Assembly: GCA_001779195.1 (NCBI GenBank)
Contig: MFJL01000019.1
Coordinates: 27,192 to 91,191 of the forward strand
DNA: 64,000 bases
From: Candidatus Gottesmanbacteria bacterium RIFCSPHIGHO2_02_FULL_39_11
Lineage (GTDB): Bacteria > Patescibacteriota > Microgenomatia > 2-02-FULL-39-11
Direction of reading: 5' to 3'
The notes below the pieces were generated by a model. That model did not search any database and was not told where the DNA came from. It worked only from the letters and a program-made list of their open reading frames with translations. Position numbers and translations under genes: made by a program. Below, piece after piece: positions 1,945-51,651 of the stretch. Each line of letters starts with the position of its first letter. Position 1 is the first letter of the stretch.

Positions 1945-2032
1945 TAGGTAAAAGGTTAAAGGTAATAGACAAATTAATTGAGAAAATAATTTCATATATC
2001 TTTAACCTAGCACCTTTTACCTTTAACCTATT
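1945..2032. repeat. Inverted pair of heptamer arrays (AGGTAAA/AGGTTAA ... TTAACCT/TTTACCT) upstream of the PrgI-like gene
   Basis: The sequence reads tttaggtaaaaggttaaaggtaatag ... ctttaacctagcaccttttacctttaaccta. The same architecture recurs at 10707-10818 and 51570-51651. Confidence 0.5.
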
Positions 2033-2123
2033 ATTGTTTTCACGATTTTATATATGGTTAAGTAGTAGTCTGACACTAAACGAAATAGTTGCAGTAGGAT
2101 TTTTCACATTTTAGGCTAGAGGT

Positions 2124-3428
2124 ATGGAGCAACATCCGGTACCCAGAAATATCTCAGGATTCCAGTTTCGATTAATAGGGGATATGACCCTAAAACAGTT
2201 TGGGTATTTAGCCGGGGGAGCTCTAATCGGATATTTAATATACGCGGTTTTTCCGATTCCTCCTCTTTTTAAATATCCTCTTATTGCAGTCATTGTTTTA
2301 GGAGGAGTAGCATTGGCATTTCTGCCCATTCAGGACAGACCTTTGGATAAATGGCTTATTGCTTTTATCAAAAGCATAACAAGGCCTACTCAGTTTTTAT
2401 GGCAGAAATACGAAGAAGCTCCCGAGATTTTGACACGTCCCTATACGACCGCCCAACAACCGGTACAAGAAAAGCATGTTCAACTGCATCATGAAAGCAA
2501 CCTGAAGCTTAAAGCTTATCTTGCATCCCTTCCGCCAACTACACAACAGACGTATAATATTCACGAAAAACAGTATATTGATCAAACTCTTGCTCTTTTT
2601 GGTACTCCCGTTCCGATAATCCGAGTCCCTTCTCTTAATTCTTCAACGCCTAATCATCCTCACCAGGAGGAGAGCGTGAGACTTTCACAAGCACCTGCTC
2701 AAATTTTACCCAGTCAATCGATAAGAGTTGCCCCTCCGGTAATTCATCCGCCTCATATTCCGACGGTTATTCCAAGTCCTCCTGCGCAGCCGCCTCCCTC
2801 TATCCCGGTAACCTCATCTTCCCATCAAGCAACAGCTTCTGTTTTGGGAACGGTCAATAACTCAACCGATCCCAACACTGATGACAAGCTAAAACAGCTT
2901 CTTTCTGAAAAGGAAAATCTCGCACGGGAGCTTGAGATGCTTAAAAAGAAGATGGAGACCGAAAAAACAACCGTGGTTGTAAAGCCCCAATTTGCTCCGG
3001 ACATTGGGAATGAATCCACCGTCACAAAAGTTAAGGCTGAATCTGTTACTGATACCGTTGGAATACCGAGTCTTCCTCAAACTCCTAATATGGTTGTAGG
3101 TGTGGTTAAAGATCCAGGGAGGAAAATCCTGCCAAACATTATTATTACCATAAAAGATGCATTGGGTACCCCTGTCCGGGCACTTAAAACAAATAAGCTG
3201 GGTCAGTTTGCAATAGCCACTCCTCTTCAAAACGGAAATTACGTATTAGAATTTGAAGATCCCATGAAACGGTACATCTTTGAAAATGTACAAATTATTC
3301 TTAACGACACGCTTTTTATTCCGGTTGAGGTTTTAGCAAAAGGCCAAAGAGAAATTGTGCGTGAACAGCTTAATAAAGCAATATTTGGAGAATTAAATCC
3401 GGCACCTGCCCAAAACGGACTGATTTGA
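2124..3428 (+). CDS. PrgI-like (VirB3-like) T4SS membrane protein with a long C-terminal extension
   Basis: The N-terminal ~95 aa has the PrgI-family layout (FQFRLIGDMTLKQFGYLAGGALIGYL plus two TM helices). A Pro-rich linker, a coiled coil (KLKQLLSEKENLARELEMLKKKMETEK) and a C-terminal beta-sandwich-like domain follow. It lies directly upstream of VirB4. Confidence 0.55.
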   Translation: MEQHPVPRNISGFQFRLIGDMTLKQFGYLAGGALIGYLIYAVFPIPPLFKYPLIAVIVLGGVALAFLPIQDRPLDKWLIAFIKSITRPTQFLWQKYEEAPEILTRPYTTAQQPVQEKHVQLHHESNLKLKAYLASLPPTTQQTYNIHEKQYIDQTLALFGTPVPIIRVPSLNSSTPNHPHQEESVRLSQAPAQILPSQSIRVAPPVIHPPHIPTVIPSPPAQPPPSIPVTSSSHQATASVLGTVNNSTDPNTDDKLKQLLSEKENLARELEMLKKKMETEKTTVVVKPQFAPDIGNESTVTKVKAESVTDTVGIPSLPQTPNMVVGVVKDPGRKILPNIIITIKDALGTPVRALKTNKLGQFAIATPLQNGNYVLEFEDPMKRYIFENVQIILNDTLFIPVEVLAKGQREIVREQLNKAIFGELNPAPAQNGLI

Positions 3429-3458
3429 TTCTCATGTGAATGATTGAAAAGTAAATTG

Positions 3459-3491
3459 TCACTTTTAACTTTTACCTTTTAACTTTAAACT
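3459..3491. repeat. Heptamer array (TTTTAAC/TTTTACC) upstream of the VirB4 N-terminal ORF
   Basis: cacttttaacttttaccttttaactttaaact. Confidence 0.4.
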
Positions 3492-3496
3492 AAAGT

Positions 3497-4186
3497 ATGG
3501 CATCACCTATCGGAACACCTATTCGCGCATCTACTCAGGATTTTTTGGATATTCAAACTATTTTAGATGATATTATTGTGCTTCGAGACGGATCTTGTGC
3601 AATAGCAATTGAGACAACTGCCGTAAATTTCGGTCTTCTTTCTGAAGAAGAACAGGACGCTCTAATTTATGCATATGCGGCTTTTTTAAATTCTCTCTCT
3701 TTTCCTCTTCAGATTGTCATCCTTTCAAAACGCATGGATATTTCTCTTTATATTGAGAGAATTACACGGGAAGAAGAGCGGCAGGTCGATGAAACAGTAA
3801 GACAGCGGCTCAAAAGATATAAAGAATTTATTATGTCCATTGTCAAAGAAAATAGAGTTCTTGAGAAAAAATTTTATCTGGTTATTTCGTTTTCAGCAGT
3901 TGAACTGGGAGTAAAAGGCGCTTTTCAAACAAATAGTCAAAAGAAAAAATTTCAGTTTTCCATGGATTACGTTTTATCGCGTGCAAAAACATCCCTCCTT
4001 CCCAAACGGGATCATGTACTAAGACAAATCGGAAGAATAGGACTTAAGGGAAGGCAACTTACCACACAGGAATTGGTTGAAATATTCTATAATATTTATA
4101 ACCCTACGTTAACCGGAGAAAAATTGGGAGATGTCGCAGGGTACGAAACTGCAATGGTTACTGGACAAGGAAAAAAATCATCATGA
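3497..4186 (+). CDS. VirB4/TraE-family T4SS ATPase, N-terminal domain (separate ORF; likely frameshifted from the next ORF)
   Basis: FLDIQTILDDIIVLRDGSCAIAIETTAVNFGLLSEEEQDALIYAYAAFLNSLSFPLQIV matches the conserved VirB4 N-terminal region. It overlaps the next ORF by 4 nt, ending in GQGKKSS just after an A7 run. Confidence 0.6.
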   Translation: MASPIGTPIRASTQDFLDIQTILDDIIVLRDGSCAIAIETTAVNFGLLSEEEQDALIYAYAAFLNSLSFPLQIVILSKRMDISLYIERITREEERQVDETVRQRLKRYKEFIMSIVKENRVLEKKFYLVISFSAVELGVKGAFQTNSQKKKFQFSMDYVLSRAKTSLLPKRDHVLRQIGRIGLKGRQLTTQELVEIFYNIYNPTLTGEKLGDVAGYETAMVTGQGKKSS

Positions 4187-6099: not shown

Positions 6100-6108
6100 T
6101 AAAAGGGT

Positions 6109-7731: not shown

Positions 7732-7832
7732 GATGGATCCCGGGTCAAGCCCGGGATGACAAAATATTTTTTATTGGTTTATTGGATTATTGGTACTTAT
7801 TGGTAATTGGATAATTGGGTTATTGGATAATT
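7732..7832. repeat. Composite element: GATGGATCCCGGG..CCCGGGATGAC hairpin plus a TTATTGG heptamer array
   Basis: The sequence is gatggatcccgggtcaagcccgggatgacaaa followed by ttattggtttattggattattggtacttattggtaattggataattgggttattgg. The hairpin matches those at 14940-14967 and 51163-51190. Confidence 0.6.
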
Positions 7833-7835
7833 TCC

Positions 7836-8945: not shown

Positions 8946-9121
8946 AAGTTTTAAATAGTAGTAGTATTAGTAAGTATTGGTGATAAGTGTAAAAGTTTTA
9001 GCTTCTACAGTCAAGGAAAGGATAAATTGTGTATTTTTTATGTGCATAACCGCCTATATGTTTTGTGTATAAAAATGTGGATAAAAAAAATTTATTGTGG
9101 ATAAGTTGATAAATCAATTTT
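8946..9121. promoter_or_regulatory. Candidate oriC segment in the dnaA-dnaN intergenic region with DnaA boxes
   Basis: Two perfect TGTGGATAA (= TTATCCACA) boxes lie at 9076-9084 and 9096-9104, with AT-rich flanks and degenerate boxes (ttgataaat, ggataaatt). Confidence 0.6.
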
Positions 9122-10568: not shown

Positions 10569-10706
10569 ATGCCGAAACGGACATTTCAACCCAAAAAAAG
10601 AAAAGCAAAAAAAATCCATGGATTTTTCAAACGGATTGGTACGGTATCAGGAAGAAAAGTTTTAAAAGCCAGACGGTTAAAGGGAAGAAAGAGACTGAGT
10701 AAGTAA
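10569..10706 (+). CDS. rpmH: 50S ribosomal protein L34
   Basis: The 45-aa translation [45 protein letters not shown] is the classic L34 sequence. It is not in the ORF track because it is short and in another frame from ORF 10499-10702. Confidence 0.9.
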
Positions 10707-10818
10707 TCTAATAACCCAATAAACCAATTTCCAATAACCCAATAAATGTAAAATGTATTAGTTTTTAAATGTGAATGTTTATTGGTAGTATTGGGTTACC
10801 TGTCTGCCGACAGACAGG
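10707..10818. repeat. Inverted heptamer arrays (CCAATAA ... TTATTGG) flanking a perfect 9-bp-stem palindrome
   Basis: The sequence is aataacccaataaaccaatttccaataacccaataaatg ... ttattggtagtattgggtt acctgtctgccgacagacaggt tggtacttattgggttatt. Confidence 0.55.
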
Positions 10819-10845
10819 TTGGTACTTATTGGGTTATTTTCTCCT

Positions 10846-11208
10846 ATGCTCCCTAAAACACACCGAATAACTCCTCCTCAATTTCGAAGAAATACCGCCA
10901 GATATTCTCATCATGAAAATCCGGTTGCGCAAATTATTGCAAAGGATAATGATCTCCATATAATTCGGGCTGGAATTGTTGTCCCGAAACGATTGGATAA
11001 GCGATCCGTCTACCGAAATCGCACTAAACGAAAAATTTCCGAAGTTATCCACAAGAAAGTAATAGGGGAGTCTGTAGGAGTTGATCTTATGATAAAATCT
11101 AAAAAAATATTTTCTCCCGATGAGTCAGACACATTTGCTCAATTAGTTTCTGAAGTTGCAGAAAAAGCCATTTTTACACATGACCAAACAAAGCCGAAAT
11201 TTACTTAA
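10846..11208 (+). CDS. rnpA: Ribonuclease P protein component
   Basis: MLPKTHRITPPQFRR...IVVPKRLDKRSVYRNRTKRKISEVI matches RnpA, and the gene directly follows rpmH. The ORF track starts 27 nt earlier at 10819. Confidence 0.85.
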   Translation: MLPKTHRITPPQFRRNTARYSHHENPVAQIIAKDNDLHIIRAGIVVPKRLDKRSVYRNRTKRKISEVIHKKVIGESVGVDLMIKSKKIFSPDESDTFAQLVSEVAEKAIFTHDQTKPKFT

Positions 11209-11437: not shown

Positions 11438-11452
11438 TAAATTGTATCCCTG

Positions 11453-11520
11453 TGTCATGCTGAATTTATTTCAGCATCTATCTTCTAATAATTAAAAAGA
11501 TCCTGAAACAAGTTCAGGAT
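11453..11520. repeat. Hairpin repeat element (GTCATGCTGAATTTATTTCAGCATC ... ATCCTGAAACAAGTTCAGGAT) downstream of yidD
   Basis: It is the inverse orientation of the elements at 46965-47021 and 47726-47806. Confidence 0.6.
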
Positions 11521-11556
11521 AACAATAGATAAGTATTTAATAGCTCACCTAAACAT

Positions 11557-12824: not shown

Positions 12825-14108
12825 GTGAAGCTCAATTGGCTTCCCTATCTTCTTTTTATTCTTCTTCCAACTCAACTTGGTAAATATTTTTTTCTTCCTG
12901 CAGCTTATATAAGCGGACTTAGAAGTGATTATTTAGCCATTTCATTTTACTTAACTGATATTATTTCAGCTTTAATAATTCTGGGATATTTTCTTAGGGT
13001 TAATCGTCACCCTGAACTTGTTTCAGGGTCTGTATTAATAAAGATGCTGAAACGAGTTCAGCATGACAAACACTTGTCTTTTTCTCCCTTTCTCTTTTTC
13101 TCCCTTTCTCTTTTTCTCTATTTATTCCTTTCTTCTCTTTTTATATCTGTAAATCCAATCATTTCTCTTTTTAAACTATTGAAGCTTCTTGAAATAGGTT
13201 TGCTTTGTTTTGTTCTTATCAGGTTAAGGCCGGATATTTCCAAAATTATTTTATCAATTTCCATAGGGGCTTTTTACTCTTCTGTTCTTGCCATTCTTCA
13301 ATTTATAAAAGGAGGGTCTTTAAATGGACTGTGGTGGTTTTTAGGGGAAAGGACGTTTACCGTGACAACTCCCGGAATTGCCGCATTTTCTTTAAACGGA
13401 ATGAGATTTTTGCGTCCCTATGCCGCTTTTCCCCATCCGAATGTTTTGGCGGGATTTTTGGCAATAAGTTCTTTAAGTATTATTTGGTACTTAAGATATA
13501 AAAAACCTCTTTCAAAAAAAGTATTTTATTATTTTGCGGGAGTTTTGGTTTTCGGTCTGATTGCTCTTATATTAACCGCAAGCCGAAACGCAATATTTGC
13601 CTATGCAATTGGTATCTTACTTCTTCTAAAGCCGGTTAAATTTGACGGAAAAAGCGTAATTGCGTTTTTTACATGCGTACTTATTTCAATTTTTATTCCA
13701 CTTTTTATATCAATTCCGAACGAAAGTATTCTGGAGCGCAAAGCGCTTATTAAGAAATCTTTTGATATTATCCAAAGTTCGGGAGTATTGGGCGTCGGGC
13801 TAAACGGGTTTATACAAATTCCAAATAACACCATGCATTTTATGGGAGTTGGTGCATATCAGCCGGTTCATAATGTTTTTCTTCTTATCTTAGCTGAAAC
13901 CGGAATGGTCGGTGTGTTTCTTTTTCTGGTTATTGTCCATCTCATCTTTTGCGATTATAAACTATCTTTTGTCTCTTTTTCTCCTGTCCTCTTTTCTCTT
14001 TTTCTCCTGTCTTTATTTGATCACTATCTATTTACCCTCCAGGAAGGGATGCTTATAACCGTTTCAGTCATCTCTCTTGCCTTTTTAGCTCGAAAAAAAT
14101 ACACTTAA
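12825..14108 (+). CDS. O-antigen ligase family (Wzy_C domain) polytopic membrane protein
   Basis: Multiple TM helices are present. HNVFLLILAETGMVGVF is the H-N...E.G Wzy_C motif, and GERTFTVTTPGIAAFSLNG is also typical. The start is uncertain: the ORF track starts at a TTG/ATG at 12756 that overlaps jag, and an in-frame GTG at 12825 follows the jag stop. Confidence 0.7.
   Translation: MKLNWLPYLLFILLPTQLGKYFFLPAAYISGLRSDYLAISFYLTDIISALIILGYFLRVNRHPELVSGSVLIKMLKRVQHDKHLSFSPFLFFSLSLFLYLFLSSLFISVNPIISLFKLLKLLEIGLLCFVLIRLRPDISKIILSISIGAFYSSVLAILQFIKGGSLNGLWWFLGERTFTVTTPGIAAFSLNGMRFLRPYAAFPHPNVLAGFLAISSLSIIWYLRYKKPLSKKVFYYFAGVLVFGLIALILTASRNAIFAYAIGILLLLKPVKFDGKSVIAFFTCVLISIFIPLFISIPNESILERKALIKKSFDIIQSSGVLGVGLNGFIQIPNNTMHFMGVGAYQPVHNVFLLILAETGMVGVFLFLVIVHLIFCDYKLSFVSFSPVLFSLFLLSLFDHYLFTLQEGMLITVSVISLAFLARKKYT
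13005..13067. repeat. Hairpin repeat copy embedded in frame within the O-antigen ligase CDS
   Basis: cgtcaccctgaacttgtttcagggtctgtattaataaagatgctgaaacgagttcagcatgac is homologous to the intergenic elements at 46965-47021. It encodes the loop HPELVSGSVLIKMLKRVQHDKHL. Confidence 0.6.
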
Positions 14109-14890: not shown

Positions 14891-14967
14891 TATCCAATCA
14901 TCTAATCAACCAATTATCCAATAAATACCAATAAGGTTTGTCATCCCGACAAAAGTCGGGATCCATC
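14891..14967. repeat. Composite element: CCAATAA array plus GTCATCCCGAC..GTCGGGATCCATC hairpin
   Basis: atccaatcatctaatcaaccaattatccaataaataccaataagg followed by gtcatcccgacaaaagtcgggatccatc. It mirrors the element at 7732-7832. Confidence 0.6.
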
Positions 14968-14974
14968 TTTGAAT

Positions 14975-15754
14975 ATGGATCTTACAATTGATAGCAAGTT
15001 AATATACGAAAAAATAATCAAATTCATTTCTTCTTCTTTTAAAAAATCCGGTTTTTCTCAAGCAGTTATTGGCCTATCAGGTGGGATTGACTCTGCTGTA
15101 TCTTTAACTTTGGCAGCTCAAGCGTTGGAAAAAGAAAATATTTACCCTTATATTCTTCCCTTTGGAGATTTAAACTCAATAGGAGTAGAGGATGCAAAAT
15201 TATTGATTAACCATTTAACCATTCCCTTTGACCATTTAACCATAATTAATATTAAGCCTTTAGTTGATCCTATCATTTCATTAGATAACTCAATTGATGA
15301 TATACGGAAAGGAAACATTATGGCCCGGATGCGGATGATCCTTCTTATGGACGCTGCCAAAAAAAGAAACGCACTTGTTGTGGGGACTGAAAATAAGACA
15401 GAGCATGTTTTGGGGTACTATACACGCTTTGGAGATGAAGCGTCCGATGTAGAGCCGATACAGAGTCTTTACAAGACTCAGGTGAGAGAGCTTGCAACAT
15501 ATCTGGGAATTCCGAAAAAAATTATTGCTGCCTCCCCCACCGCAGGGTTGTGGGAGGGTCAGACGGATGAAGGGGAATTTGGATTTACCTACGAAGAGGC
15601 GGATCAGATTTTGTATTTGAAATTTGAGAAACATTTATCTGAAGAAGAAATAGTGAAAAAGAGATTTAAGAGGGAGGTAGTGGGGAAAGTGCTAGGACGG
15701 GTTAAGGTAAATGAATTTAAAAAAAATCTCCCGATGGTTTTTATCACTGAATGA
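14975..15754 (+). CDS. nadE: NH3-dependent NAD+ synthetase
   Basis: The PP-loop GLSGGIDSAV is present, with TENKTEHVLGYYTRFGD. The ORF track start at 14969 is a TTG, and the first ATG is at 14975. Confidence 0.88.
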   Translation: MDLTIDSKLIYEKIIKFISSSFKKSGFSQAVIGLSGGIDSAVSLTLAAQALEKENIYPYILPFGDLNSIGVEDAKLLINHLTIPFDHLTIINIKPLVDPIISLDNSIDDIRKGNIMARMRMILLMDAAKKRNALVVGTENKTEHVLGYYTRFGDEASDVEPIQSLYKTQVRELATYLGIPKKIIAASPTAGLWEGQTDEGEFGFTYEEADQILYLKFEKHLSEEEIVKKRFKREVVGKVLGRVKVNEFKKNLPMVFITE

Positions 15755-16190
15755 CTGTTATCTTCTCATTTTTAGACAGAGGGTTAAAATCATTATCAAA
15801 TGTGGCTATTGCAAAAACTTTATTTTGTTTCATGCATTCCAAATGAAAAGCGTCTCGGGGTCTTAAATTATAAGTTTTTATTGAATCTAAAATATTTATA
15901 AGCGAATCTTCGCTATTTTCAAACTCAATTAGCCGTGTCGTATTCCAGGAAAGAACTGCTTGTACTGTTTTAGATAATATAGAAGCAAAAGAACCAAAGG
16001 AATTATCATTTTTTTCACCTCTTAAGAGAAAAACAATCCCATACAAAAATTCATCCATCGTTAAGGCAGATATCAAAAGAAACGCATTCTCTGACCATAA
16101 ATTGTCAATAATTTTTTTCGCTCTCTCGTGAAATTCGTGACCAGAAACCTGATGGGCAATGAGAATATTAGCGTCCAAATATACTTTTTT
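15744..16190 (-). CDS. vapC: PIN-domain toxin VapC
   Basis: The PIN N-terminus is MIKKVYLDANILIA, with acidic residues ...ATFDNDF. Confidence 0.72.
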   Translation of the reverse strand, partial: KKVYLDANILIAHQVSGHEFHERAKKIIDNLWSENAFLLISALTMDEFLYGIVFLLRGEKNDNSFGSFASILSKTVQAVLSWNTTRLIEFENSEDSLINILDSIKTYNLRPRDAFHLECMKQNKVFAIATFDNDFNPLSKNEKITVIQ

Positions 16191-16455
16191 TATCATAAGG
16201 ATTTTTAATAGCGTCAAAGACTTTCTCAATAGGCATTGATTTTGACATTTGAATAGTTCCTGCTGTTTTAGAGGGAGGGAGTTTAGAGGCGACTTGGGAT
16301 GAAGTTTGTTTTCCTAATACATTAAATTGTATGCTTTCCACAACGATTTCATTCATGGTACGTTTTTCTTTTAAAGCTCTTTTTTTTATGATAAATAACA
16401 AATCTTCAGGCAGAGTGACAGTAGTGCGTATCATCGGTGTATTCATATCTATCAT
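16168..16455 (-). CDS. vapB: RHH-type antitoxin VapB
   Basis: TTVTLPEDLLFIIKKRALKEKRTMNEIVVESI is a ribbon-helix-helix motif. It overlaps the vapC start and is paralogous to ORF 16839-17126. Confidence 0.6.
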   Translation of the reverse strand: MIDMNTPMIRTTVTLPEDLLFIIKKRALKEKRTMNEIVVESIQFNVLGKQTSSQVASKLPPSKTAGTIQMSKSMPIEKVFDAIKNPYDKKSIFGR

Positions 16456-16838
16456 ATTAGCATCAAAGCATCAATGTGTCAATACTCGCTGGGAAAAAGA
16501 GCGTTACCGTATGTGTGTTGGTTGAGGCCGGTTTTATATTAATTAGGCCTGACAAGTATCCTAATTTAGTATAAATTAGGACACAAAAAGACGGTTTCTG
16601 ATAAGATACAGCTTTTCGAGAGGATATTTATCATTTTTTTATCTTACTTTCTGTGGACTATTAACAGAGAAAACTACCTGAAGGAACTGACTGGTCCTCA
16701 TTCTTAAGACAAGAAACGATTGATCAAATCGAAAAGTATTGGAACGGGTGAAGAAGAATAGGTTTAAGTCACAATTATCATTTAGCCTATAGAAGAAAAA
16801 TTTGACATATTTATGCTTTTATGTTACTATGAATCCAT

Positions 16839-17126
16839 ATGATAAATCCTACTGTTAGAACTACTGTCGATCTTCCAGAAGATTTGATCTTTGCTATAAA
16901 GCAGAAAGCTCTTAATGAAAAAAAATCTCTAAAATATATTATTTACCAAGCGCTTACAACCTATATGAAATATAAAGAACCGATTACATCTACTACTTCT
17001 GTTCTTTCACTTTTCGGTGCCTGGGGAAAAGGAGAGAAAGGGATAGACTTTCTTAAAAGAGTAAGATACTCTCCCCTTGAGAAAGAACGGGAAGAACATC
17101 TTGAAAAACAATGGAAAAAATCCTAA
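16839..17126 (+). CDS. vapB: RHH-type antitoxin VapB (second copy)
   Basis: TTVDLPEDLIFAIKQKALNEKKS is nearly the same motif as in the first antitoxin. It overlaps the downstream PIN gene. Confidence 0.6.
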   Translation: MINPTVRTTVDLPEDLIFAIKQKALNEKKSLKYIIYQALTTYMKYKEPITSTTSVLSLFGAWGKGEKGIDFLKRVRYSPLEKEREEHLEKQWKKS

Positions 17127-17494
17127 TTGACTCCGATGTGCTCATTGATTTTCTCCGAGGTTATACCCTTCGCATCAAAGATGTTTTTTCACGGATCGAG
17201 AAGAAAGAACTGGATGCGTATATATCGACAATAACTGTCTCAGAGCTCTACAGCGGGCAAGATGTAGTAAGTGAGAAAGGGAAATCAGAACTTAGAAAGT
17301 TATTATCCATTTTCAAAAAAATATCCATAGATGAAAAAATAGCAGAAGAAGCCGGGGATATTCGAAGAAGCCATCGTGTAGGTTTATCCGATGCTTTAAT
17401 TGCAAGCACGGCTCTTTCTCTTACCGCCAAGCTCTTGACCTTTAACAAAAAACATTTTCAACATATTCAGGAACTGACGTTCTTTTCTATTTAA
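17111..17494 (+). CDS. vapC: PIN-domain toxin VapC (second copy)
   Basis: MEKILIDSDVLIDFLRG ... LSDALIASTAL is a PIN fold. Confidence 0.72.
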   Translation: MEKILIDSDVLIDFLRGYTLRIKDVFSRIEKKELDAYISTITVSELYSGQDVVSEKGKSELRKLLSIFKKISIDEKIAEEAGDIRRSHRVGLSDALIASTALSLTAKLLTFNKKHFQHIQELTFFSI

Positions 17495-36100: not shown

Positions 36101-36217
36101 GTCATCCCGCACTTGTTTACCCTGTAAGGGATGCGGGATCCAGAAGTCAAAACACTGGATTCCGGGTCTCGAAACAATCCTTACGGATTTTCCGAGTAAA
36201 CAAGCCCGGAATGACAA
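36101..36217. repeat. Compound hairpin repeat element downstream of the GH63 gene
   Basis: cgtcatcccgcac...gggatgcgggatcc followed by tggattccgggtc...aagcccggaatgacaatg has the same two-hairpin architecture as 51163-51259 and 55216-55310. Confidence 0.6.
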
Positions 36218-36277
36218 TGTAACTCTTTCATCTTTGACCTCTTGCTTAGGGGAAGTTATACTGCTAAATATTATAGT

Positions 36278-43522: not shown

Positions 43523-43939
43523 TTAAGTTTGGACAGCCGAGGGAATGTTAAAGTTGAAAATGTTCGGAACTCCCAGGAAGTTAGCAACTAAATTGAATAT
43601 TGCGTAAGCTGCAAAGACCAACAGAAGTCCCAAAAGTGCAGCCTGGATTTTATTCCGTGCCGACTCAATATTTCCTTTGTCTCCTCCTGAGGTGATCCAC
43701 TGAAATCCTCCCCAGAGAAGATAGACAAAGGCGATAAGTCCCGCTAAAAAGAGGAATAAGGAAAGAAGGCTTCCAATAAGTTTTCCTAAATCTAGGATTC
43801 TTAGTTCCGGAGGTGGAGGGATATTAATTGATCCCGAGGGGAAGGGTGTGTTGGATTGAGCGTGAACTCCTGGGACAACAATTCCGGACGTAACTGCAAT
43901 TGTTAATGTTGTGATAGCAGAGGACAAAGTTTTCTTCAT
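43523..43939 (-). CDS. T4SS pilin-like protein (VirB2/TrbC-like), paralog 1
   Basis: A signal peptide precedes a TM helix, the motif FQWITSGGDKGNIESARNKIQAALLGL and a second TM helix. Confidence 0.5.
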   Translation of the reverse strand: MKKTLSSAITTLTIAVTSGIVVPGVHAQSNTPFPSGSINIPPPPELRILDLGKLIGSLLSLFLFLAGLIAFVYLLWGGFQWITSGGDKGNIESARNKIQAALLGLLLVFAAYAIFNLVANFLGVPNIFNFNIPSAVQT

Positions 43940-44014
43940 ATATAAACAGATTAGGAGGATTTTTTTCTCTTGTCAAGAGATAAAAAAGTACTGAGGTAAA
44001 ACTTGCCCCAGTCT

Positions 44015-44341
44015 TCACTGAGTCGGGATTCTGAAAATAGTAATGGGAACCCCTGTGAAATACTCAATCAGTTTAAATATAAGGTACGCCCCAGCCATCA
44101 GAGCAATTCCGATAATCGCGTATGTCAGCGTCGATTTTGCAGATGCTACAGCTTTGGGGTCTCCTCCGGCTGTCAGGAACTTAAACCCTCCGACTAGAAA
44201 CATCACAAATAGAGCCAAAGCTGCAAGACTTACGGCAACCACCAAAATATTTGAGAATACAATCTCAAGGCATTTAATAGTCGGGACTTCTACCTCTCCA
44301 ACCTTTAACAAACATCCCGGAACATCATTCCAATTTTTCAT
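44015..44341 (-). CDS. T4SS pilin-like protein, paralog 2
   Basis: FKFLTAGGDPKAVASAKSTLTYAIIGI lies between two TM helices. Confidence 0.5.
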   Translation of the reverse strand: MKNWNDVPGCLLKVGEVEVPTIKCLEIVFSNILVVAVSLAALALFVMFLVGGFKFLTAGGDPKAVASAKSTLTYAIIGIALMAGAYLIFKLIEYFTGVPITIFRIPTQ

Positions 44342-44347
44342 AATGGT

Positions 44348-44689
44348 TTAAAAGAGTTTAGGAAGATTCAGATTTACTCCATCTCCGCTTGTAAGTCCCA
44401 GAAATTTTAAAAGGACAAGATATATTGACCACGAAGCAACCAGAATGATAAGCCCGATGATGGACTGCAAGATCCGTTCCCTGGCCTCCATCACTTTCCC
44501 TTTATCTCCTCCTGAGGTGATCCACTCCAGTCCTCCCCGAAGAAGCTGAAACAATGTCCAGATTGCTCCTAAGAATAAAATTATTCCCACCAGAGCTGAA
44601 AAAAACTTTCCAAAAGCAGCTGCGGAGCTTGCTTGGTCACAGTTAAGCCCGATTATAGCTGTATTACAAACAGGAGTTATGTTTGGCAT
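44348..44689 (-). CDS. T4SS pilin-like protein, paralog 3
   Basis: LEWITSGGDKGKVMEARERILQSIIGL lies between two TM helices. Confidence 0.5.
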   Translation of the reverse strand: MPNITPVCNTAIIGLNCDQASSAAAFGKFFSALVGIILFLGAIWTLFQLLRGGLEWITSGGDKGKVMEARERILQSIIGLIILVASWSIYLVLLKFLGLTSGDGVNLNLPKLF

Positions 44690-44693
44690 AGCA

Positions 44694-45182
44694 TCAGATT
44701 ACTAATTTTATTATAGCTTCTCCGGGATTAAAAATATTAAGCCCGAAAATATTTCCAACCAGTCCTACAAAGATATAGGAGACAACCACAATAAGAAGCC
44801 CAATCACCGCGTGAAGCATGCGCAGGCGCGCGATTTCCAAAAGCCCTTTATCAGCTCCGGCTGAGATCCACTGAAATCCTCCTATTATAAATTGTATTAA
44901 AAACCACAATCCTGCAATGATCGTTATAAATGAGATAATTCCGCTGACAAGCTGATTTAAGGAGTTTGCAACCTGAGTATTTTGATCAGTAGTATTGTTA
45001 GAATTTAAGATTCCGCAAATAATGTTTCCAATTGGGCCCATCCCTCCTCCGCATCCTATACCTTGGGTATTTGGTCCTGCTGGAGTTTGTGCAAAAGCTT
45101 TTGGAATCCCAATCAAATGAACTAAGCCGACAAAAAAAATAATAATTAAAGCAGAAATAATAATATTTAAGTATTTACTCAT
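44694..45182 (-). CDS. T4SS pilin-like protein, paralog 4
   Basis: FQWISAGADKGLLEIARLRMLHAVIGL lies between two TM helices, with an N-terminal signal peptide. Confidence 0.5.
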   Translation of the reverse strand: MSKYLNIIISALIIIFFVGLVHLIGIPKAFAQTPAGPNTQGIGCGGGMGPIGNIICGILNSNNTTDQNTQVANSLNQLVSGIISFITIIAGLWFLIQFIIGGFQWISAGADKGLLEIARLRMLHAVIGLLIVVVSYIFVGLVGNIFGLNIFNPGEAIIKLVI

Positions 45183-45619
45183 GGTGTTGGTGTAATAGTA
45201 GGATTAAGAATTGCGGTAACATTTCCATACAGAACAAGCCCGATAATTGCAGCTACCAGAAATGATGCCACAATGATAATAAGTCCTACCAGGGACTGCC
45301 AGATACGTGTCCAGGCTGATGCAACCTTTTTGCTATCCCCGGAAGCGCTCATAAAATCAAATCCGGCTATAATAAAATTTAAAAAAGTCCACAAGCCGGC
45401 AACGATAAAAATAATCCGAAGAACCAGGTTCATCAGAATGACAACTGCGGTAAGTTGTCCCGTATCACTAATTGGGGGTGTTGAGAAAAGTCCGCCGAAT
45501 CCGGTGGGATTGATTGTCCCAATCGGATCTCCCTGAGCGTAGACAGGAGTAGAAAGCGAAAGGGAGAAAGAGAGAAGAAGCGAAAAAAAAATAATTGTTA
45601 TAGATGACAAACGATTCAT
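45179..45619 (-). CDS. T4SS pilin-like protein, paralog 5
   Basis: FDFMSASGDSKKVASAWTRIWQSLVGL, with an N-terminal signal peptide ending in the AQG cleavage context. Confidence 0.5.
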   Translation of the reverse strand: MNRLSSITIIFFSLLLSFSLSLSTPVYAQGDPIGTINPTGFGGLFSTPPISDTGQLTAVVILMNLVLRIIFIVAGLWTFLNFIIAGFDFMSASGDSKKVASAWTRIWQSLVGLIIIVASFLVAAIIGLVLYGNVTAILNPTITPTP

Positions 45620-45969
45620 CCGAATACTCCTCCAAAAGGTTTTCCTGTAAGGTTATTTATTATCTGAAGTATCCAGAGGGAGGCAAACATAATAATGAGT
45701 CCTATCACCGCATATGTCAGAATCATTTTTCTGCTCTCCGATGCATGAGGGTCTCCTCCGGCATTTGAGATCACTCCAAATCCCGCAATAACTACGATAA
45801 AAAAGCACAAAATGCCGCCGGCAAGTAAAAATAGGGGAACAAAAAAAGACACAAATCCCCCGATTGAACCAAAAGCCGGATTTTTCGCGATAGGAAAAAT
45901 TTTTCCGATATCTACTCCACCTGTAGGCATTCTAAATTTAGAATAAGGGGGAACAGGGAGGTTTGTCAA
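45616..45969 (-). CDS. T4SS pilin-like protein, paralog 6
   Basis: FGVISNAGGDPHASESRKMILTYAVIGL. The start may be at the internal Met (MPTGG). Confidence 0.45.
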   Translation of the reverse strand: MTNLPVPPYSKFRMPTGGVDIGKIFPIAKNPAFGSIGGFVSFFVPLFLLAGGILCFFIVVIAGFGVISNAGGDPHASESRKMILTYAVIGLIIMFASLWILQIINNLTGKPFGGVFG

Positions 45970-46553: not shown

Positions 46554-46555
46554 CT

Positions 46556-46795: not shown

Positions 46796-46964
46796 TTGGG
46801 AAGTGGGAAATTAGATATGTGACGTGAGATGTTGATATTCTCGAAATTGGATGTTCATGAATTTGGTTACTTGGTATCAAGAATTCAAGATTTCAAAAAT
46901 TCTAGATCAAAAGTATCTAACTTCCAACTTCAAGATATCTCATGCTAGAAGTCATCTCTAAACT

Positions 46965-47021
46965 GTCATCCTGAACTTGTTTCAGGATCTTCTGAAGATG
47001 CTGAAATAAATTCAGCATGAC
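46965..47021. repeat. Hairpin repeat element (GTCATCCTGAACTTGTTTCAGGATC ... GATGCTGAAATAAATTCAGCATGAC)
   Basis: Two consecutive stem-loops. The element is nearly identical to 47726-47806 and is the inverse of 11453-11520. Confidence 0.6.
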
Positions 47022-47085
47022 GCAGACGCGGAGGTTTCGAGACTACTTCTAACTTCTTACAGTCACTTCCCACTTCATAATTACT

Positions 47086-47715
47086 ATGTCTCTTGTGATA
47101 TCTGTATTTTTCCAATCATTCGTGTCATTTCTTAAAACCTCTTGGGGGTGTTTTAATCGTCCGTATGAAACATATAGAAAAATTTCTTCCGGATCCTTTA
47201 ATTTGCTTTCTACGTTTTTTATTTTTTTCTTTGTCTGTGTTTACTTTGCCTGGGAGAGCTTAATCCGAACTCCCTTTAGAAGTCCCTATGTATTGACTTA
47301 CAATTTTGGTTTGTCGTTTTTAGCAGCAGCTACCGGGTTTTCTCTTATCGTAGGCATTTTGTACTTTTTAGGAGAAAAGACACATGAGAAGATATCTCTT
47401 GAAAGAGTAGTAATACTCTGGTCTTATTCATTACTTCCAACGGTAATTTGGTTTTTTTCTACATCTCTTATCTATATGATTCTTCCGCCTCCAAGAACCT
47501 TATCTGTGTGGGGAAAGGGATTTAGTATCGTATTTATCTCTTTTTCCATCGCTCTTTTGGGATGGAAAATCATTCTGTATTATCTGACACTTCGGTTTGG
47601 ACTTCGAATCAGTTTGAAAAAAATTCTTACTGTTTCTTTTGTCGTTATCCCGATTATAGCGATCTACTCACTAGGCATGTATTATTTAAGAATATTTAGA
47701 ATACCGTTTATATAA
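47086..47715 (+). CDS. Hypothetical polytopic membrane protein (Yip1-like topology)
   Basis: A 209-aa ORF with five or six TM helices. Confidence 0.4.
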   Translation: MSLVISVFFQSFVSFLKTSWGCFNRPYETYRKISSGSFNLLSTFFIFFFVCVYFAWESLIRTPFRSPYVLTYNFGLSFLAAATGFSLIVGILYFLGEKTHEKISLERVVILWSYSLLPTVIWFFSTSLIYMILPPPRTLSVWGKGFSIVFISFSIALLGWKIILYYLTLRFGLRISLKKILTVSFVVIPIIAIYSLGMYYLRIFRIPFI

Positions 47716-47725
47716 AAATTGCTCT

Positions 47726-47806
47726 GTCATCCTGAACTTGTTTCAGAGCCTGTCCTGAATTCGGTTCAGGAATCTTCTGAAGATGCTGAAATAAATTCAG
47801 CATGAC
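47726..47806. repeat. Hairpin repeat element, three stem-loops
   Basis: gtcatcctgaacttgtttcagagcctgtcctgaattcggttcaggaatcttctgaagatgctgaaataaattcagcatgac. Confidence 0.6.
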
Positions 47807-47815
47807 GATCAAGCT

Positions 47816-48973
47816 ATGTCATTGAGAGACTTTAAGACGATAGAAGAAAGAAGAAAATATATTGAAGATGAAACTCACAACAAATTCTCTTCGATATCTT
47901 TATTTCCGGATAAGTTAAAGGAAGCATCGCAGACCAATTGTGAAAATATGATTGGGGCGGTATCTATTCCTTTAGGAATTGCAGGACCGTTAAAAATCAG
48001 AGATCAGGGATCAGGGGTCAGGGATCAGGAAGTCTATGTTCCTTTAGCAACCACAGAAGGAGCATTGGTAGCTTCCGTAAATCGGGGATGCAAGGCAATT
48101 TCAGAAAGCGGGGGAGCATATACGGTTGTTGAAAATTCAGGAATGACACGGGGAGCTTCATTTAAAACACAAAGTCTTAAGCAGAGTTTAGAGCTTCGTG
48201 AATTTATTAATATCCATAATGAGGATATAAAAAAAATTGCATCATCTACTTCTTTTCATCTTCAGTTTAAATCTGTATTTACTAAAACATTAGGAAGAAG
48301 TGTTTTTGTGAGATTTTCTTTTGATTGTTCTGAGGCAATGGGAATGAATATGGCGACAATTGCTGTCTCTAAAATTTGTAACTATTTAGAAAAAGAAACT
48401 CAAGCTAAAACCATTTCGGTTGCCTCAAACTTTGATGTAGATAAAAAACCTGCTTGGCTAAATGTGATTTTAGGAAGAGGAAGGCAGGTATGGGCTGAGG
48501 TTGAGATTTCAGATAAAACCATCGTATCGGTATTAAAAACAACCGCACAGAAAATGCACGAATTAAATATTCAAAAAAATCTTTTAGGTTCATCTCTTTC
48601 AGGGTCCCTGGGGTTTAATGCTCATTTTGCCAACATTGTTTCTGCGTTTTTTATCGCAACCGGTCAGGATCCGGCTCATGTAACTGAAGGAAGTTTAGGC
48701 TTCACAACGACTGATCTTACAACCGCTGGAATTGCGGTAAGTATTTACATGCCCAATGTAAATGTAGGGACAGTAGGAGGGGGAACTAAGCTTGCCTGCC
48801 AAAAAGAAGCACTAAGTATATTAGGCATCACAGACGGCTCTTGTAAGGGAAGCGCTGATCTTTTAGCTTCTTATTTGGGAGCAGCAGTTCTGGGAGGAGA
48901 AATATCCCTTCTTGCCTCCCTTGCAGAGGGAAGTCTTGCATCAACTCATAAAAAATTAGGAAGAGGAAAATAA
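47816..48973 (+). CDS. Hydroxymethylglutaryl-CoA reductase (class I-like)
   Basis: ENMIGAVSIPLGIAGPLKI and LATTEGALVASVNRGCKA are diagnostic HMGR motifs. Confidence 0.9.
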   Translation: MSLRDFKTIEERRKYIEDETHNKFSSISLFPDKLKEASQTNCENMIGAVSIPLGIAGPLKIRDQGSGVRDQEVYVPLATTEGALVASVNRGCKAISESGGAYTVVENSGMTRGASFKTQSLKQSLELREFINIHNEDIKKIASSTSFHLQFKSVFTKTLGRSVFVRFSFDCSEAMGMNMATIAVSKICNYLEKETQAKTISVASNFDVDKKPAWLNVILGRGRQVWAEVEISDKTIVSVLKTTAQKMHELNIQKNLLGSSLSGSLGFNAHFANIVSAFFIATGQDPAHVTEGSLGFTTTDLTTAGIAVSIYMPNVNVGTVGGGTKLACQKEALSILGITDGSCKGSADLLASYLGAAVLGGEISLLASLAEGSLASTHKKLGRGK

Positions 48974-50013: not shown

Positions 50014-50018
50014 AGTTT

Positions 50019-51161
50019 ATGACACCTGTAAGAATTTTATCAGGAGCGGTGAGTAAATTCGGAGAACTTTGGGATGTGTCTCCCCGTGATTTAGTAAAAG
50101 AAGTTGTTCAGAAGGCATTAACTGAAGCAGGTCTAACCACCTCATCAATTGACGGTGTGTTTGTGGGAAATATGCTTGCCGGAACTTTGGGCAATCAGGA
50201 TCATTTGGGAGCTTTTTTTAGTGAAGAGTTGGGTATTTTTAGAGGATCCATTAGCGTTGAGGGAGCATGTGCCTCCGGAGGTTTGGCTGTTCATAGCGGT
50301 GTAATGGCTATTCTTTCCGAGTTATATCACCATGTTTTGGTAATTGGTGTTGAAAAAATGACAGATCATAAGCCTGAAGATGTTGCCAAAGGCCTCATGG
50401 GTGCAGGCTCCTCAGCAGAACGGGAATCAGGGGCGACTTTTCCCAGTCTGTATGCGCTTATGGCTGTTGCCCATATGGAGAAATACGGAACAACCGAGGA
50501 ACAGATGGCCGCAGTATCCGTCAAAAACCATTTTCATGCGAGTTTAAACCCCAATGCTCAGTTTCATACTCCTATAACCATTGAACAGGTGATGAAAAGT
50601 TCATGTATCGCCTCCCCCCTCAAACTTCTGGATTGCTCTCCTATAACAGATGGAGCAGCAGCGATTATCTTATCGAAAAACAAAACGAAAAACGAGATAA
50701 GTATTATTGCTTCCTCTGTTGAAACAGATACATTAGGAGTTGCAGAGAGGGAAAGTTTGACCAGTCTTGCCTCATCAGTACATGCTTCAAAAGAAGCATA
50801 TGCACAGGCTGGTATTAAACCTTCCGATATTGATGTAGCTGAAGTTCATGATTGCTTTTCAATTGCGGAAATACTGGCGATGGAAGACCTCGGTTTTTTT
50901 CAAAAAGGTGAAGCAGCAGAGGCAATTTTTGAGGGGAAAACGAAACTAGGATCCAAAAAACTTGTGGTAAATACCTCCGGAGGTTTAAAAGCATCCGGTC
51001 ATCCGGTGGGTGCAACCGGAGTTAAGCAGATAGTTGAGATTTATGAGCAGCTTAAAGGAAAAGCAGGAAAACGGCAGGTAGATGGTGCAAAGATAGGACT
51101 TACCCATAATGTCGGAGGATCAGGAGCAACGGCGGTTATACATATTTTAAGGAGAAATTAA
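50019..51161 (+). CDS. Acetyl-CoA acetyltransferase (thiolase, archaeal-type)
   Basis: The thiolase active-site region is VEGACASGGLAVH, with C-terminal GATG and NVGGSGA motifs. Confidence 0.85.
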   Translation: MTPVRILSGAVSKFGELWDVSPRDLVKEVVQKALTEAGLTTSSIDGVFVGNMLAGTLGNQDHLGAFFSEELGIFRGSISVEGACASGGLAVHSGVMAILSELYHHVLVIGVEKMTDHKPEDVAKGLMGAGSSAERESGATFPSLYALMAVAHMEKYGTTEEQMAAVSVKNHFHASLNPNAQFHTPITIEQVMKSSCIASPLKLLDCSPITDGAAAIILSKNKTKNEISIIASSVETDTLGVAERESLTSLASSVHASKEAYAQAGIKPSDIDVAEVHDCFSIAEILAMEDLGFFQKGEAAEAIFEGKTKLGSKKLVVNTSGGLKASGHPVGATGVKQIVEIYEQLKGKAGKRQVDGAKIGLTHNVGGSGATAVIHILRRN

Positions 51162-51162
51162 C

Positions 51163-51259
51163 GTCATCCCGGGCTTGACCCGGGATCCATTCCTTATGGT
51201 GTGTGGATTCCCGCCTTCCCTAAAAAGCGAACTTTTCAGGGTAAACGCGGGAATGACAA
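51163..51259. repeat. Compound hairpin repeat element downstream of the thiolase
   Basis: gtcatcccgggcttgacccgggatccat followed by tggattcccgcc...gcgggaatgacaaa. The first hairpin is identical to the one at 7732-7761. Confidence 0.6.
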
Positions 51260-51268
51260 ACAACTCTT

Positions 51269-51571
51269 ATGATTAGCCCGGTAAAAATTTGGAGAAACCA
51301 GAAAAAAATAGAAGCACTTCTTGGGAAAGTCGGAGAAATTGTATCCTGGACAAAGGTTTATGTTCCCCCCGCCGGATTTATTTCTCAAGCCCCTTATATT
51401 GTTGCGGTTGTAAAGCTTAAGGAGGGAAAAAATATTATCTGCCAGTATGTAGACTGGGGGGAAAGAGAACTTGTTATTGGACAAAAAGTAAAAACCATAT
51501 TAAGACGTACCCAGGAAAGCGATACGGATGGGGTAATTCCCTATGGAGTTAAAGTAAAACCTGTTAATTAG
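51269..51571 (+). CDS. DUF35 OB-fold/Zn-ribbon protein (scaffold of the thiolase/HMG-CoA synthase complex)
   Basis: The ~100-aa protein shows the OB-fold pattern YIVAVVKLKEGKNIICQYVDWGERELVIGQKV. Its position after the thiolase matches archaeal operons. Confidence 0.65.
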   Translation: MISPVKIWRNQKKIEALLGKVGEIVSWTKVYVPPAGFISQAPYIVAVVKLKEGKNIICQYVDWGERELVIGQKVKTILRRTQESDTDGVIPYGVKVKPVN

Positions 51572-51651
51572 GTGTCAGGTGCTAGGTTTTAGGTGTTAGA
51601 TTATTATTCAACGTTTTTCTTATAACCTATAACCTTAAACCTATAACCTTA
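51570..51651. repeat. Inverted pair of heptamer arrays (AGGTGTC/AGGTGCT/AGGTTTT ... TAACCTA/TAAACCT)
   Basis: aggtgtcaggtgctaggttttaggtgttag ... ataacctataaccttaaacctataacctta. Confidence 0.5.

Follow-up and report, generated by a model that had tools for sequence, protein, structure and literature searches.

Six intergenic loci in a 64-kb stretch of contig MFJL01000019.1 (hereafter the window; 38.7% G+C) carry arrays of short tandem repeats with units of 7–8 bp, and we consider here what these arrays are and how they might have arisen. The window DnaN itself recurs on ENA metagenome contigs. Its next named relatives in a homologue search belong to Candidatus Gottesmanbacteria (51–56% identity), and all DnaA relatives in a scan of genome contigs were at most 51% identical; judged by the DnaN relatives, the window is part of a genome of the Candidate Phyla Radiation (CPR, or Patescibacteria). 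Gene order was derived from synteny with relatives and from Pfam matches. On the minus strand, clpC diverges from a cluster resembling a type IV secretion system (T4SS), with prgI-like, traC-like and virB4-like genes and one unknown gene. The minus strand also carries dnaN and dnaA, with DnaA boxes between them at 9064–9100, and the next block comprises rpmH, rnpA, yidD, yidC, jag, a wzy-like gene, nadD and nadE. Farther along lie sugar metabolism genes, six T4SS-pilin paralogues, an extracytoplasmic-function (ECF) sigma factor gene, and a mevalonate operon encoding HMG-CoA reductase, HMG-CoA synthase, thiolase, an OB-fold protein, mevalonate kinase, phosphomevalonate kinase, decarboxylase and UPP synthase. 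An Rfam scan of the window returned two tRNAs and nothing else. The closest comparison genome (L083/L084, with L331/L332 from the same samples) has a DnaN 87% identical to that of the window, and three farther ones (L085, L086 and L333) have 56–59% identity; synteny is kept in all of them. Contigs of the window organism itself were available from four other samples (L081, L082, L328, L329 and L330).

The six loci, here called A to F in order of position, had been described in an earlier note on this DNA, and all six are present. Also borne out is the arrangement of several of them as a forward array, a spacer and a reverse array, which is found at 1946–2029, 10708–10838 and 51570–51649; the gaps between the arms are 24–38 bp, and each arm has 3–4 contiguous units. 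The remaining three loci (B, C and E) are arrays of a single orientation. The AGGT family is strictly heptameric, every core lying exactly 7 bp from the next within an arm. On the plus strand, the left arm of array A (1946–1966) reads AGGTAAA AGGTTAA AGGTAAT followed by AGA, with AGGT at 1946, 1953 and 1960, and its right arm (2002–2039) consists of four NNNACCT units (ACCT at 2005, 2012, 2019 and 2026) followed by the T-rich tail ATTATTGTTT. The array stands between a predicted clpC promoter (TTGACA at 1928–1923 on the minus strand) and a TTTTCACG motif conserved in relatives. Array F starts at the stop codon of the OB-fold gene; its left arm (51570–51597, plus strand) reads AGGTGTC AGGTGCT AGGTTTT AGGTGTT and then AGA (AGGT at 51570, 51577, 51584 and 51591), and its right arm (51622–51661, plus strand) reads ATAACCT ATAACCT TAAACCT ATAACCT (ACCT at 51625, 51632, 51639 and 51646), with a tail, TTATTTATTGTTT, that reaches the mevalonate kinase ATG at 51662. 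Array B (3460–3491, plus strand) has a different unit, reading ACTTTTA ACTTTTA CCTTTTA ACTTTAA ACTAAAG, and ends 6 nt upstream of the ATG of the TraC-like gene.

The other three loci belong to the ATTGG/CCAAT family. The earlier note had called them TTATTGG heptamers; they are indeed arrays, but mostly of octamers, with an ATTGG core, linkers of 2–5 nt and a spacing of 7–10 bp (mostly 8). Array C (7771–7833, minus strand) starts 2–3 nt past the dnaN stop codon and has seven or eight CCAATAA or CCAATTA units on the dnaN sense strand, that is, TTATTGG on the plus strand, where the cores between 7773 and 7826 are spaced by 8, 8, 10, 7, 8 and 8 bp. Beside it, at 7735–7760, lies a GC-rich, terminator-like hairpin, which reads GTCATCCCGGGCTTGACCCGGGATCC and then ATCTTTTG on the dnaN (minus) strand. 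The left arm of array D (10708–10746, plus strand) begins 5 nt past the rpmH stop and comprises five C(C/T)AAT-type units with CCAAT cores at 10708–10743. Its right part (10777–10838, plus strand) consists of TTTATTGG, TATTGGG, a hairpin, TTATTGGGTTATT and a U-rich tail, with inverted TTATTGG copies at 10779, 10789 and 10826; the tail ends 7 nt before the rnpA ATG. The hairpin is the perfect palindrome with a 9-bp stem, ACCTGTCTG-CCGA-CAGACAGGT, that the earlier note had placed between rpmH and rnpA, and we find it at 10798–10819, between the rpmH stop codon (10700–10702) and the rnpA start (10846). Array E (14894–14934, plus strand) has five C(C/T)AAT units 4 nt past the nadD stop (CCAAT cores at 14894–14932), and next to it at 14940–14964, also on the plus strand, lies a hairpin, GTCATCCCGACAAAAGTCGGGATCC then ATCTTTG, of the same subfamily as the one beside array C. 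In all three ATTGG arrays, CCAAT is on the sense strand and the first unit lies 2–5 nt past a stop codon. Arrays B, D and F end 6–12 nt before an ATG, and A, C and E do not.

The earlier note would have given up its reading had the repeats been no more frequent than base composition predicts in a shuffled control. The arrays are far more frequent than that: AGGTN3AGGTN3AGGT has 7 matches in the window against 0.02 expected, and three successive ATTGG-N2-5 units have 8 against 0.02. Tandem Repeats Finder (TRF) reported 18 arrays of period 5–9 with at least 2.8 copies, compared with a mean of 1.05 and a maximum of 4 in 100 dinucleotide shuffles. When we counted the 4-mers that recur three times at a fixed period, the window had 30 at period 7 against 2.9 in shuffles (z 15.4) and 23 at period 8 against 2.1 (z 14.4), with no excess at periods 5, 10, 11 and 13 and, at 6, 9, 12 and 15, the small excess expected from coding sequence. 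The periodicity is therefore not random. Isolated TTATTGG words outside the arrays, in contrast, occur at about the frequency given by base composition according to our own arithmetic, so it is the tandem arrangement and not the word itself that departs from chance. We also considered a DNA uptake sequence, which was rejected because of this expected frequency of the isolated word, and a relationship to DnaA boxes, which was rejected because the sequences are unrelated.

Arrays of this kind are not confined to the six loci. The earlier note had missed one further intergenic array of period 8 (46877–46906, plus strand, TCAAGAAT, 3.8 copies), which lies about 55 bp upstream of a GTCATCCTGAAC hairpin element, and about nine arrays inside open reading frames (ORFs). 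Half of the window arrays fall in the roughly 11% of sequence that is intergenic and half in ORFs, where the units are unrelated and include TTTCTCCC, TCTTTTTC, TTAACCAT, ATCAGGG and AAATAAC. In their tandem excess and their preference for non-coding DNA, the arrays agree with the heptamer-class long simple-sequence repeats (LSSR 5-11). The count of 18 slightly overstates the true insertions, since some ORF arrays are ancestral coding quasi-repeats: those at 13965–14006 and 15207–15243 are low-complexity or quasi-repeat coding segments that are present at equal length in relatives. TRF matches within arrays are 71–90%, the lowest value being that of the TTAACCAT array at 15207, with a conserved core and variable linkers. 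These arrays are additionally listed by TRF with periods of 14 and 16, which fits stepwise duplication. Inside the HMG-CoA reductase ORF, an ATCAGGG array (47996–48029, plus strand, period 7, 4.9 copies) encodes a surface loop. The same loop in the close relative L331 (412–437) contains a different heptamer array, CCAATGC CCAATTT CCAATGC CCAATAA, and in a third, more distant relative it has no periodicity at all, while the length of the loop is nearly unchanged. Different heptamer arrays in one loop indicate that arrays originate frequently and are filtered by what a site tolerates. The diversity of units and the half of arrays found in ORFs fit a general mutational process, and arrays of many other units, some of them in ORFs, point to general slippage as the primary source of the repeats rather than to mobility. 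To go by these sequences, 7-base tandem duplication is a general and frequent event in these genomes.

The intergenic arrays opened up junctions that are tight in relatives. When orthologous sites for A, C, D, E and F were compared in L083, L085, L086, L331 and L333, the spacer between dnaN and the next gene (array C) measured 161 bp in the window, compared with overlapping genes in two relatives and 9 bp in another; rpmH–rnpA (array D) measured 143 bp against 48 and 4 bp, nadD–nadE (array E) 79 bp against 9 and 6 bp, the OB-fold gene to mevalonate kinase (array F) 90 bp against 3 and 12 bp, and clpC–prgI (array A) 261 bp against 162 and 159 bp, where the extra DNA sits between the conserved promoter-like TTGACA of clpC and the conserved TTTTCACG motif. 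Because these spacers are so much shorter in relatives, the arrays must represent recent insertions or expansions specific to the lineage. The relative with the 48-bp rpmH–rnpA spacer has a small array of its own there, GGCAATA GGCAATA ... TATTGCC, and array-bearing and neighbouring junctions also gained GC-rich hairpin elements, which are of the GTCATCC(C/T)G type.

On the timescale of the available assemblies, by contrast, the arrays stand still. They are identical in the window organism's contigs from the four other samples (array C in both L081 and L082) and hence not hypervariable. This bears on the idea that they are phase-variation, or contingency, repeats whose copy number switches the expression of a neighbour. 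Heptamer repeats at Haemophilus hmw promoters switch expression in this way, and the window arrays are likewise short tandem repeats near promoters and start codons. The constancy between samples speaks against such switching, as do the degenerate units (73–90% matches), which suppress slippage, and the neighbours, which are housekeeping genes (dnaN, rpmH/rnpA, nadD/nadE and mevalonate kinase) and not surface genes. We regard this explanation as largely refuted already and hardly credible.

Several features are shared between loci. All four arms of A and F have AGA on the inner side, and both right arms are directly followed by TTATTGTTT, a 9-mer with only three plus-strand copies in the window. 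A GTCATCCCG-loop-CGGGATCCATCTTT hairpin follows both array C and array E, with the same orientation at each. The hairpin of array D (CTGTCTG-CCGA-CAGACAG), together with CCAAT-type flanks, recurs in L020, a distant CPR locus, where it lies directly downstream of dnaN. The earlier note had proposed, as one of two possibilities, a non-autonomous mobile element, and this is the half of its reading that is better supported: insertion into tight junctions in one lineage and the shared tails, AGA trinucleotides and hairpins agree with it, whereas no target-site duplication, conserved interior or transposase was found in the 64 kb, and the order of units carries no significant copy signature.

The regions can also fold. 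Array D (10700–10850) folds at −44.8 kcal/mol (z −5.0 relative to shuffles), the arms of array A at −23.4 kcal/mol (z −3.4) and array F at −23.3 kcal/mol (z −2.8), although in array F the arms pair only through the AGGT/ACCT cores, giving helices of 4–5 bp separated by 3×3 internal loops. The T-rich tails lie only on the side that matches the direction of transcription of the flanking plus-strand genes, as they would in an intrinsic terminator or attenuator. In 16 kb, the best terminator-like site is the hairpin next to array C. D and F do fold and have T-rich tails, yet their stems are long, AU-rich and interrupted.

Taken together, these data lead us to favour, tentatively and at somewhat less than an even chance, the view that the arrays are heptamer-class simple-sequence repeats generated by slippage, and that the AGGT-N3 and ATTGG families among them spread as small palindromic, hairpin-forming, terminator-like insertions, which are not iterons. 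We infer slippage as the generator, copy-and-paste as the mode of spread, and any terminator function. In this model, the lineage and some other CPR bacteria would have a strong tendency to duplicate units of 7–8 bp, and then of 14–16 bp, by slipped-strand replication, with the products persisting chiefly in non-coding spacers and in protein loops that tolerate them. The AGGT-N3 and ATTGG/CCAAT units might then have spread to several junctions within small palindromic insertions, composed either of an array, a spacer, an inverted array and a T-rich tail or of an array with a GC-rich hairpin, and such insertions would have opened formerly tight junctions. If they act at all, they most likely do so as stem-loops on the transcript or on single-stranded DNA, which makes them candidate partial terminators, attenuators or 3′-end structures.

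A number of observations weigh against this model. There is no difference in copy number among the 3–4 assemblies, so slippage is not fast on that timescale, and the near-perfect identity of units expected of recent slippage is not seen. The supposed copies have unrelated interiors, the flanks of the arrays show no target-site duplication, and Pfam searches of the window ORFs (64 kb) found no transposase, integrase, Rep, ParB or array-adjacent regulator, of which the missing transposase counts against spread. The irregular order of units shared by C, D and E (8, 8, 7/8, 10) was tried as a signature of copying and rejected, since permuted units score equally (p = 0.21 and 0.55). The poor complementarity of the array F arms is not what one would expect of a selected hairpin. 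Array A lies upstream of both divergent promoters, where there is nothing obvious to terminate, and strong terminators would be harmful in the essential rpmH-rnpA-yidC and mevalonate operons, so any termination would have to be partial. Finally, the AGGT core is unchanged in 15 of 15 units, while nine forms are found among the three bases that follow; had a slippage product simply decayed, changes would be expected at all seven positions. By our own arithmetic, the chance that at least 13 substitutions falling at random on 105 positions would all miss the 60 core positions is about 2e-5, a figure inflated by the way the arrays were ascertained.

In a rival account, the arrays are neutral by-products of slippage and of template switching at quasi-palindromes, without spread and without function, and the recurrence of units reflects shared seeds and base composition. 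The diversity of units, the arrays in ORFs, the period doubling and the outcome of the permutation test all agree with it, as do the patchy presence of arrays among CPR lineages and their rapid turnover between close relatives. In L085, a TAATTGG array even grew in place from a coding ITN motif by a 21-nt (7-residue) duplication. Such an account is hard to reconcile with the TTATTGTTT tail and inner AGA common to A and F, with the hairpin subfamily common to C and E in one orientation, with an invariant core next to variable N3, with the position of all three ATTGG arrays just past stop codons, or with the hairpin and CCAAT-type flanks that L020 shares with array D. We consider purely neutral by-products unlikely.

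The invariance of AGGT is what would be expected if the arrays were operator- or centromere-like sites for a multimeric protein, each subunit of which would read a core of 4–5 bp (AGGT or ATTGG) per 7–8 bp, with the inverted arms brought into a symmetric higher-order complex. AGGT is phased at exactly 7 bp, and N3 appears free: compared by eye, the N3 of opposite arms have only partial complementarity in array A, where one position of the three differs in L1/R1 and in L2/R2, and practically none in array F. Periods of 7 and 8 are those typical of ribbon-helix-helix arrays. ParG, for example, binds 8-bp boxes, and MetJ binds 8-bp metboxes. The omega/ParB protein of pSM19035, also of the ribbon-helix-helix type, binds 7-bp heptads in mixed orientation, with a functional minimum of four heptads that is close to the 3–4 units per arm seen here, and requires that they be contiguous (PMC9499535). 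What the window arrays share with ribbon-helix-helix arrays is a unit of 7 or 8 bp built around a conserved core, the presence of both direct and inverted copies, and a number of about four or more units per site. Furthermore, the three ATTGG arrays are no more than 6 kb away from the DnaA boxes clustered at 9064–9100, and triple arrays of CCAAT/ATTGG were found, among the 87 dnaA-region loci compared (about 1.5 Mb), only in Gottesmanbacteria, in three genomes, and not in about 1.4 Mb of other bacteria. On the other hand, ribbon-helix-helix arrays are contiguous, occupy promoters of their cognate operon and are retained together with the binder. The arms in the window are split by 24–38 bp, which breaks the contiguity that the pSM19035 system needs (PMC9499535), and the arrays are missing at the same junctions even in the relative whose DnaN is 87% identical. 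The 7–10 bp spacing of ATTGG cores is ill-suited to cooperative binding on duplex DNA, CCAAT-type arrays also occur within ORFs of relatives, and many other units share the periodicity. No candidate gene adjoins the arrays: the cognate regulator that the earlier note had proposed to look for nearby was not found, the sole ribbon-helix-helix proteins encoded in the window being VapB-type antitoxins (16168–16455 and 16839–17126). The note's suggestion of binding sites for a DNA-binding protein therefore stands in so far as an invariant AGGT beside a variable N3 keeps it worth considering, and falls short in that no binding protein was identified. On balance we think a multimeric binder unlikely, though a serious alternative.

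A related proposal in the earlier note, that the geometry is iteron-like, does not hold. Iterons are conserved repeats of about 17–22 bp at an origin beside a rep gene. The window arrays are like plasmid and phage iterons in being short direct repeats, which sometimes form two opposed groups, but their units are of 7–8 bp, neither a rep gene nor any other cognate gene was found near them by Pfam among the window ORFs, and they are not conserved. Their distance from the DnaA-box cluster is 1.3–6 kb, with one AGGT locus 42 kb away inside the mevalonate operon. Relatives with the same oriC lack them at the corresponding junctions, which disfavours an essential role in origin function or partition.

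Another possibility is that the arrays act on RNA. The G-free runs of CCAAUAA, or of ACUUUUA and AUAACCU, might be unstructured leaders, ribosome standby sites or C-rich Rho-loading sites, or they might be sites for a multimeric RNA-binding protein, as has been proposed for the TAACTGA repeats of Beggiatoaceae. The short distances to start codons (B, D and F) and from stop codons (C, D and E), where the mRNA carries the strand free of G, would suit this explanation, and a single-strand binder would tolerate the variable spacing of cores. Heptamers directly upstream of start codons have been described elsewhere, with S1, Csp or CsrA-type proteins proposed as binders (MacGregor 2015, PMC4679880). 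Orientation, however, is inconsistent: the units of array D proximal to the start are of the G-rich strand, and in the CPR locus L068 the same TAGTATC array is found both along and against the direction of transcription. The predicted transcripts do not include array A, and relatives have the same genes without arrays. We therefore hold a role on RNA to be very unlikely.

Beyond the window, the number of triple 4-mer matches at period 7 (matches, not array counts) per 64 kb is 25 in the window, 33 in Gottesmanbacteria relatives, 20.7 in other CPR loci and 2.3 in non-CPR loci of the dnaA region; the density in CPR is about nine times that of non-CPR loci, though in some lineages only. At periods 6, 9 and 12, CPR and non-CPR loci are equal. 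Ten or more period-7 matches were counted in 4 of the 13 CPR loci and in 1 of the 67 loci from non-CPR bacteria (Fisher p = 0.002). The array-rich CPR loci are L001 (Amesbacteria, AGTAAAT), L020 (ACTTTTA and TAGTATT), L039 and L068 (Berkelbacteria, TAGTATC), each lineage having recurrent units of its own. L068 and L020 each have near-identical array-bearing segments at two sites. Across six CPR loci, the density of arrays in intergenic DNA is 7.8 times that in coding DNA (22 in 14.3 kb against 27 in 137 kb). A metagenome scan with CCAATAANCCAATAA gave mostly chance matches of two units, with at least three units in about 14 of 80 loci, none of which is from the window species. Arrays of TTATTGGG in the forward-spacer-reverse arrangement do occur in unrelated metagenome contigs of 42–53% G+C (L147, L092, L134 and L144), where they lie between convergent genes or just past stop codons. 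Phage contigs from IMG/VR (60–67% G+C) contain hairpins made of AGGT-N3/N3-ACCT arrays, and all 11 of those examined (four each in L235 and L232, two in L221 and one in L237) are intergenic, several being followed by T-runs. Their stems are AGGT-containing heptamers, for example (AGGTAGG)3-4, a loop and (TACCTCA)3-4. Within the left arms there is repeated GGAGGT, which is Shine-Dalgarno-like, and within the right arms ACCTC.

There is also a bolder interpretation, which we consider distinctly unlikely. Heptamer arrays might be a hallmark of some CPR lineages, either kept by a conserved multimeric nucleic-acid-binding factor that reads a 4–5-nt core every 7–8 nt, of which AGGT-N3 and ATTGG would be the versions in the window lineage, or produced by a CPR-specific form of replication or repair that makes 7-nt duplications at a very high rate; they would then constitute an undescribed layer of genome organisation or gene-junction control, of which the phage hairpins would be the same device. 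A search for literature on heptamer or tandem repeats in CPR/Patescibacteria found nothing relevant. Since CPR genomes are small and tightly packed, a burst of repeat insertions of 80–160 bp in essential operons is unexpected, and the affected junctions include rpmH–rnpA, the 3′ end of dnaN, nadD–nadE and the mevalonate pathway operon. If the CPR excess were to hold genome-wide, the preference of prokaryotic repeats for heptamers would extend to a new part of the tree.

Among repeats known from other bacteria, the cyanobacterial short tandemly repeated repetitive sequences comprise a few heptamer families (e.g. CCCCAGT) in perfect tandem intergenic arrays of heterocystous cyanobacteria. The window arrays are similar in consisting of a few heptamer families in the intergenic DNA of one lineage and differ in their units; to our knowledge, the inverted-pair design has not been described for the cyanobacterial repeats. 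Small palindromic elements such as REP/BIME, Correia, RUP and the Rickettsia palindromic elements have a conserved full-length consensus, and those of Rickettsia insert in frame. The window insertions resemble them as short, hairpin-forming, non-coding insertions between genes that are missing at the site in relatives and may sometimes act as terminators, but what their copies have in common is limited to the inner AGA, the tail and the periodic arms, which consist of tandem repeats. The closest described analogue is the TAACTGA heptamer of marine Beggiatoaceae, cyanobacteria and Bacteroidetes, a single family found at many intergenic sites in 2–6 copies, often near start codons (MacGregor 2015, PMC4679880). 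These repeats also occur beside essential genes, have no evident mechanism of mobility and are almost all direct and perfect, with one indirect case in 170 (PMC4679880). The units in the window are AGGTNNN, ACTTTTA and TTATTGG, they are imperfect and in another phylum, and three of six loci are inverted pairs.

In the survey of long simple-sequence repeats of prokaryotes, as summarised in a later paper, heptamers were the commonest unit, and polymerase slippage was proposed as the source, with a possible structural role for the LSSR 5-11 (Mrazek et al. 2007, via PMC4679880). The arrays agree with the LSSR 5-11 as outlined there (Mrazek, Guo and Shah 2007, via PMC4679880) in having units of 7–8 nt beyond chance, dominated by heptamers, mostly non-coding and phylogenetically scattered. 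The survey predates CPR genomes and reported such repeats chiefly from large ones, whereas the genome here is a small CPR genome with degenerate units around a conserved core, and the arrays in the window stand in inverted pairs and beside GC hairpins. The arrays are best filed as a lineage-specific variant of the known but unexplained heptamer-class repeats. What is new is how strong they are in some CPR genomes, the pairing of inverted arrays and the invariance of the core. With its 4 nt unchanged and phased at exactly 7 nt, the core offers a compact test case for slippage versus recognition by a protein. In practice, such arrays can be mistaken for iterons, CRISPR-like repeats or regulatory sites, and they seem to break short-read assemblies.

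The GC-rich hairpins that accompany some arrays form a family in their own right. Its members start with GTCATCC(C/T)G, some pairing with GATGCTGAA..TTCAGCATGAC, and are found at 7735–7760, 11450–11525, 12990–13070, 14940–14964, 36103–36232, 46963–47045, 47726–47810, 51163–51258 and 55216–55300. Full copies are about 100–130 bp long with inverted ends, and the others are solo hairpins. One copy lies in frame within the wzy-like ORF and adds about 14 residues (RHPELVSGS...MLKRVQHD) compared with the 87% relative, which resembles the Rickettsia palindromic elements. Short-read contigs of the window organism from other samples have an end near arrays or hairpins, L328 and L329 starting at window position 1703 and L330 at 2112, which suggests that the repeats fragment short-read assemblies.

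The TTTTCAC motif next to array A is one of two conserved copies (TTTTCACG and ATTTTTCACATTTTA), spaced by about 70 bp, that precede the prgI-like T4SS-type cluster in three genomes (2037–2123 in the window, 10876–11037 in L085 and 16752–16910 in L086). The pair may be an operator or a promoter element. The dnaA-dnaN spacer (8946–9121), a probable oriC, is kept at 176–177 bp across four Gottesmanbacteria, with counterparts at 6336–6511 in L083, 4265–4441 in L085 and 9824–10000 in L086. It contains TGTGGATAA boxes and a conserved block, GTGATAAGTGTAAA..CAGTCAAGGA, and relatives have further DnaA boxes (TTATCCACA) upstream of dnaA.

The six T4SS-pilin paralogues are successive small genes at 43523–45969, each matching T4SS_pilin (PF18895), and the ECF sigma factor gene adjoins them divergently. 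Two divergent VapBC-type modules, each with a ribbon-helix-helix antitoxin and a PIN toxin, occupy 15744–16455 and 16839–17494; about 380 bp (16456–16838) separate the starts of the antitoxins, the N-termini of which are similar (TTVTLPEDLLFIIKK and TTVDLPEDLIFAIKQ). At 56840–56927 ARAGORN calls a tRNA-Ser with the anticodon ACT; A at the wobble position (A34) is unusual for a bacterial serine tRNA. The gene lies 620 bp downstream of a normal tRNA-Ser(GCT), and between the two tRNA-Ser genes is a toxin-antitoxin pair of the HepT/MNT type.

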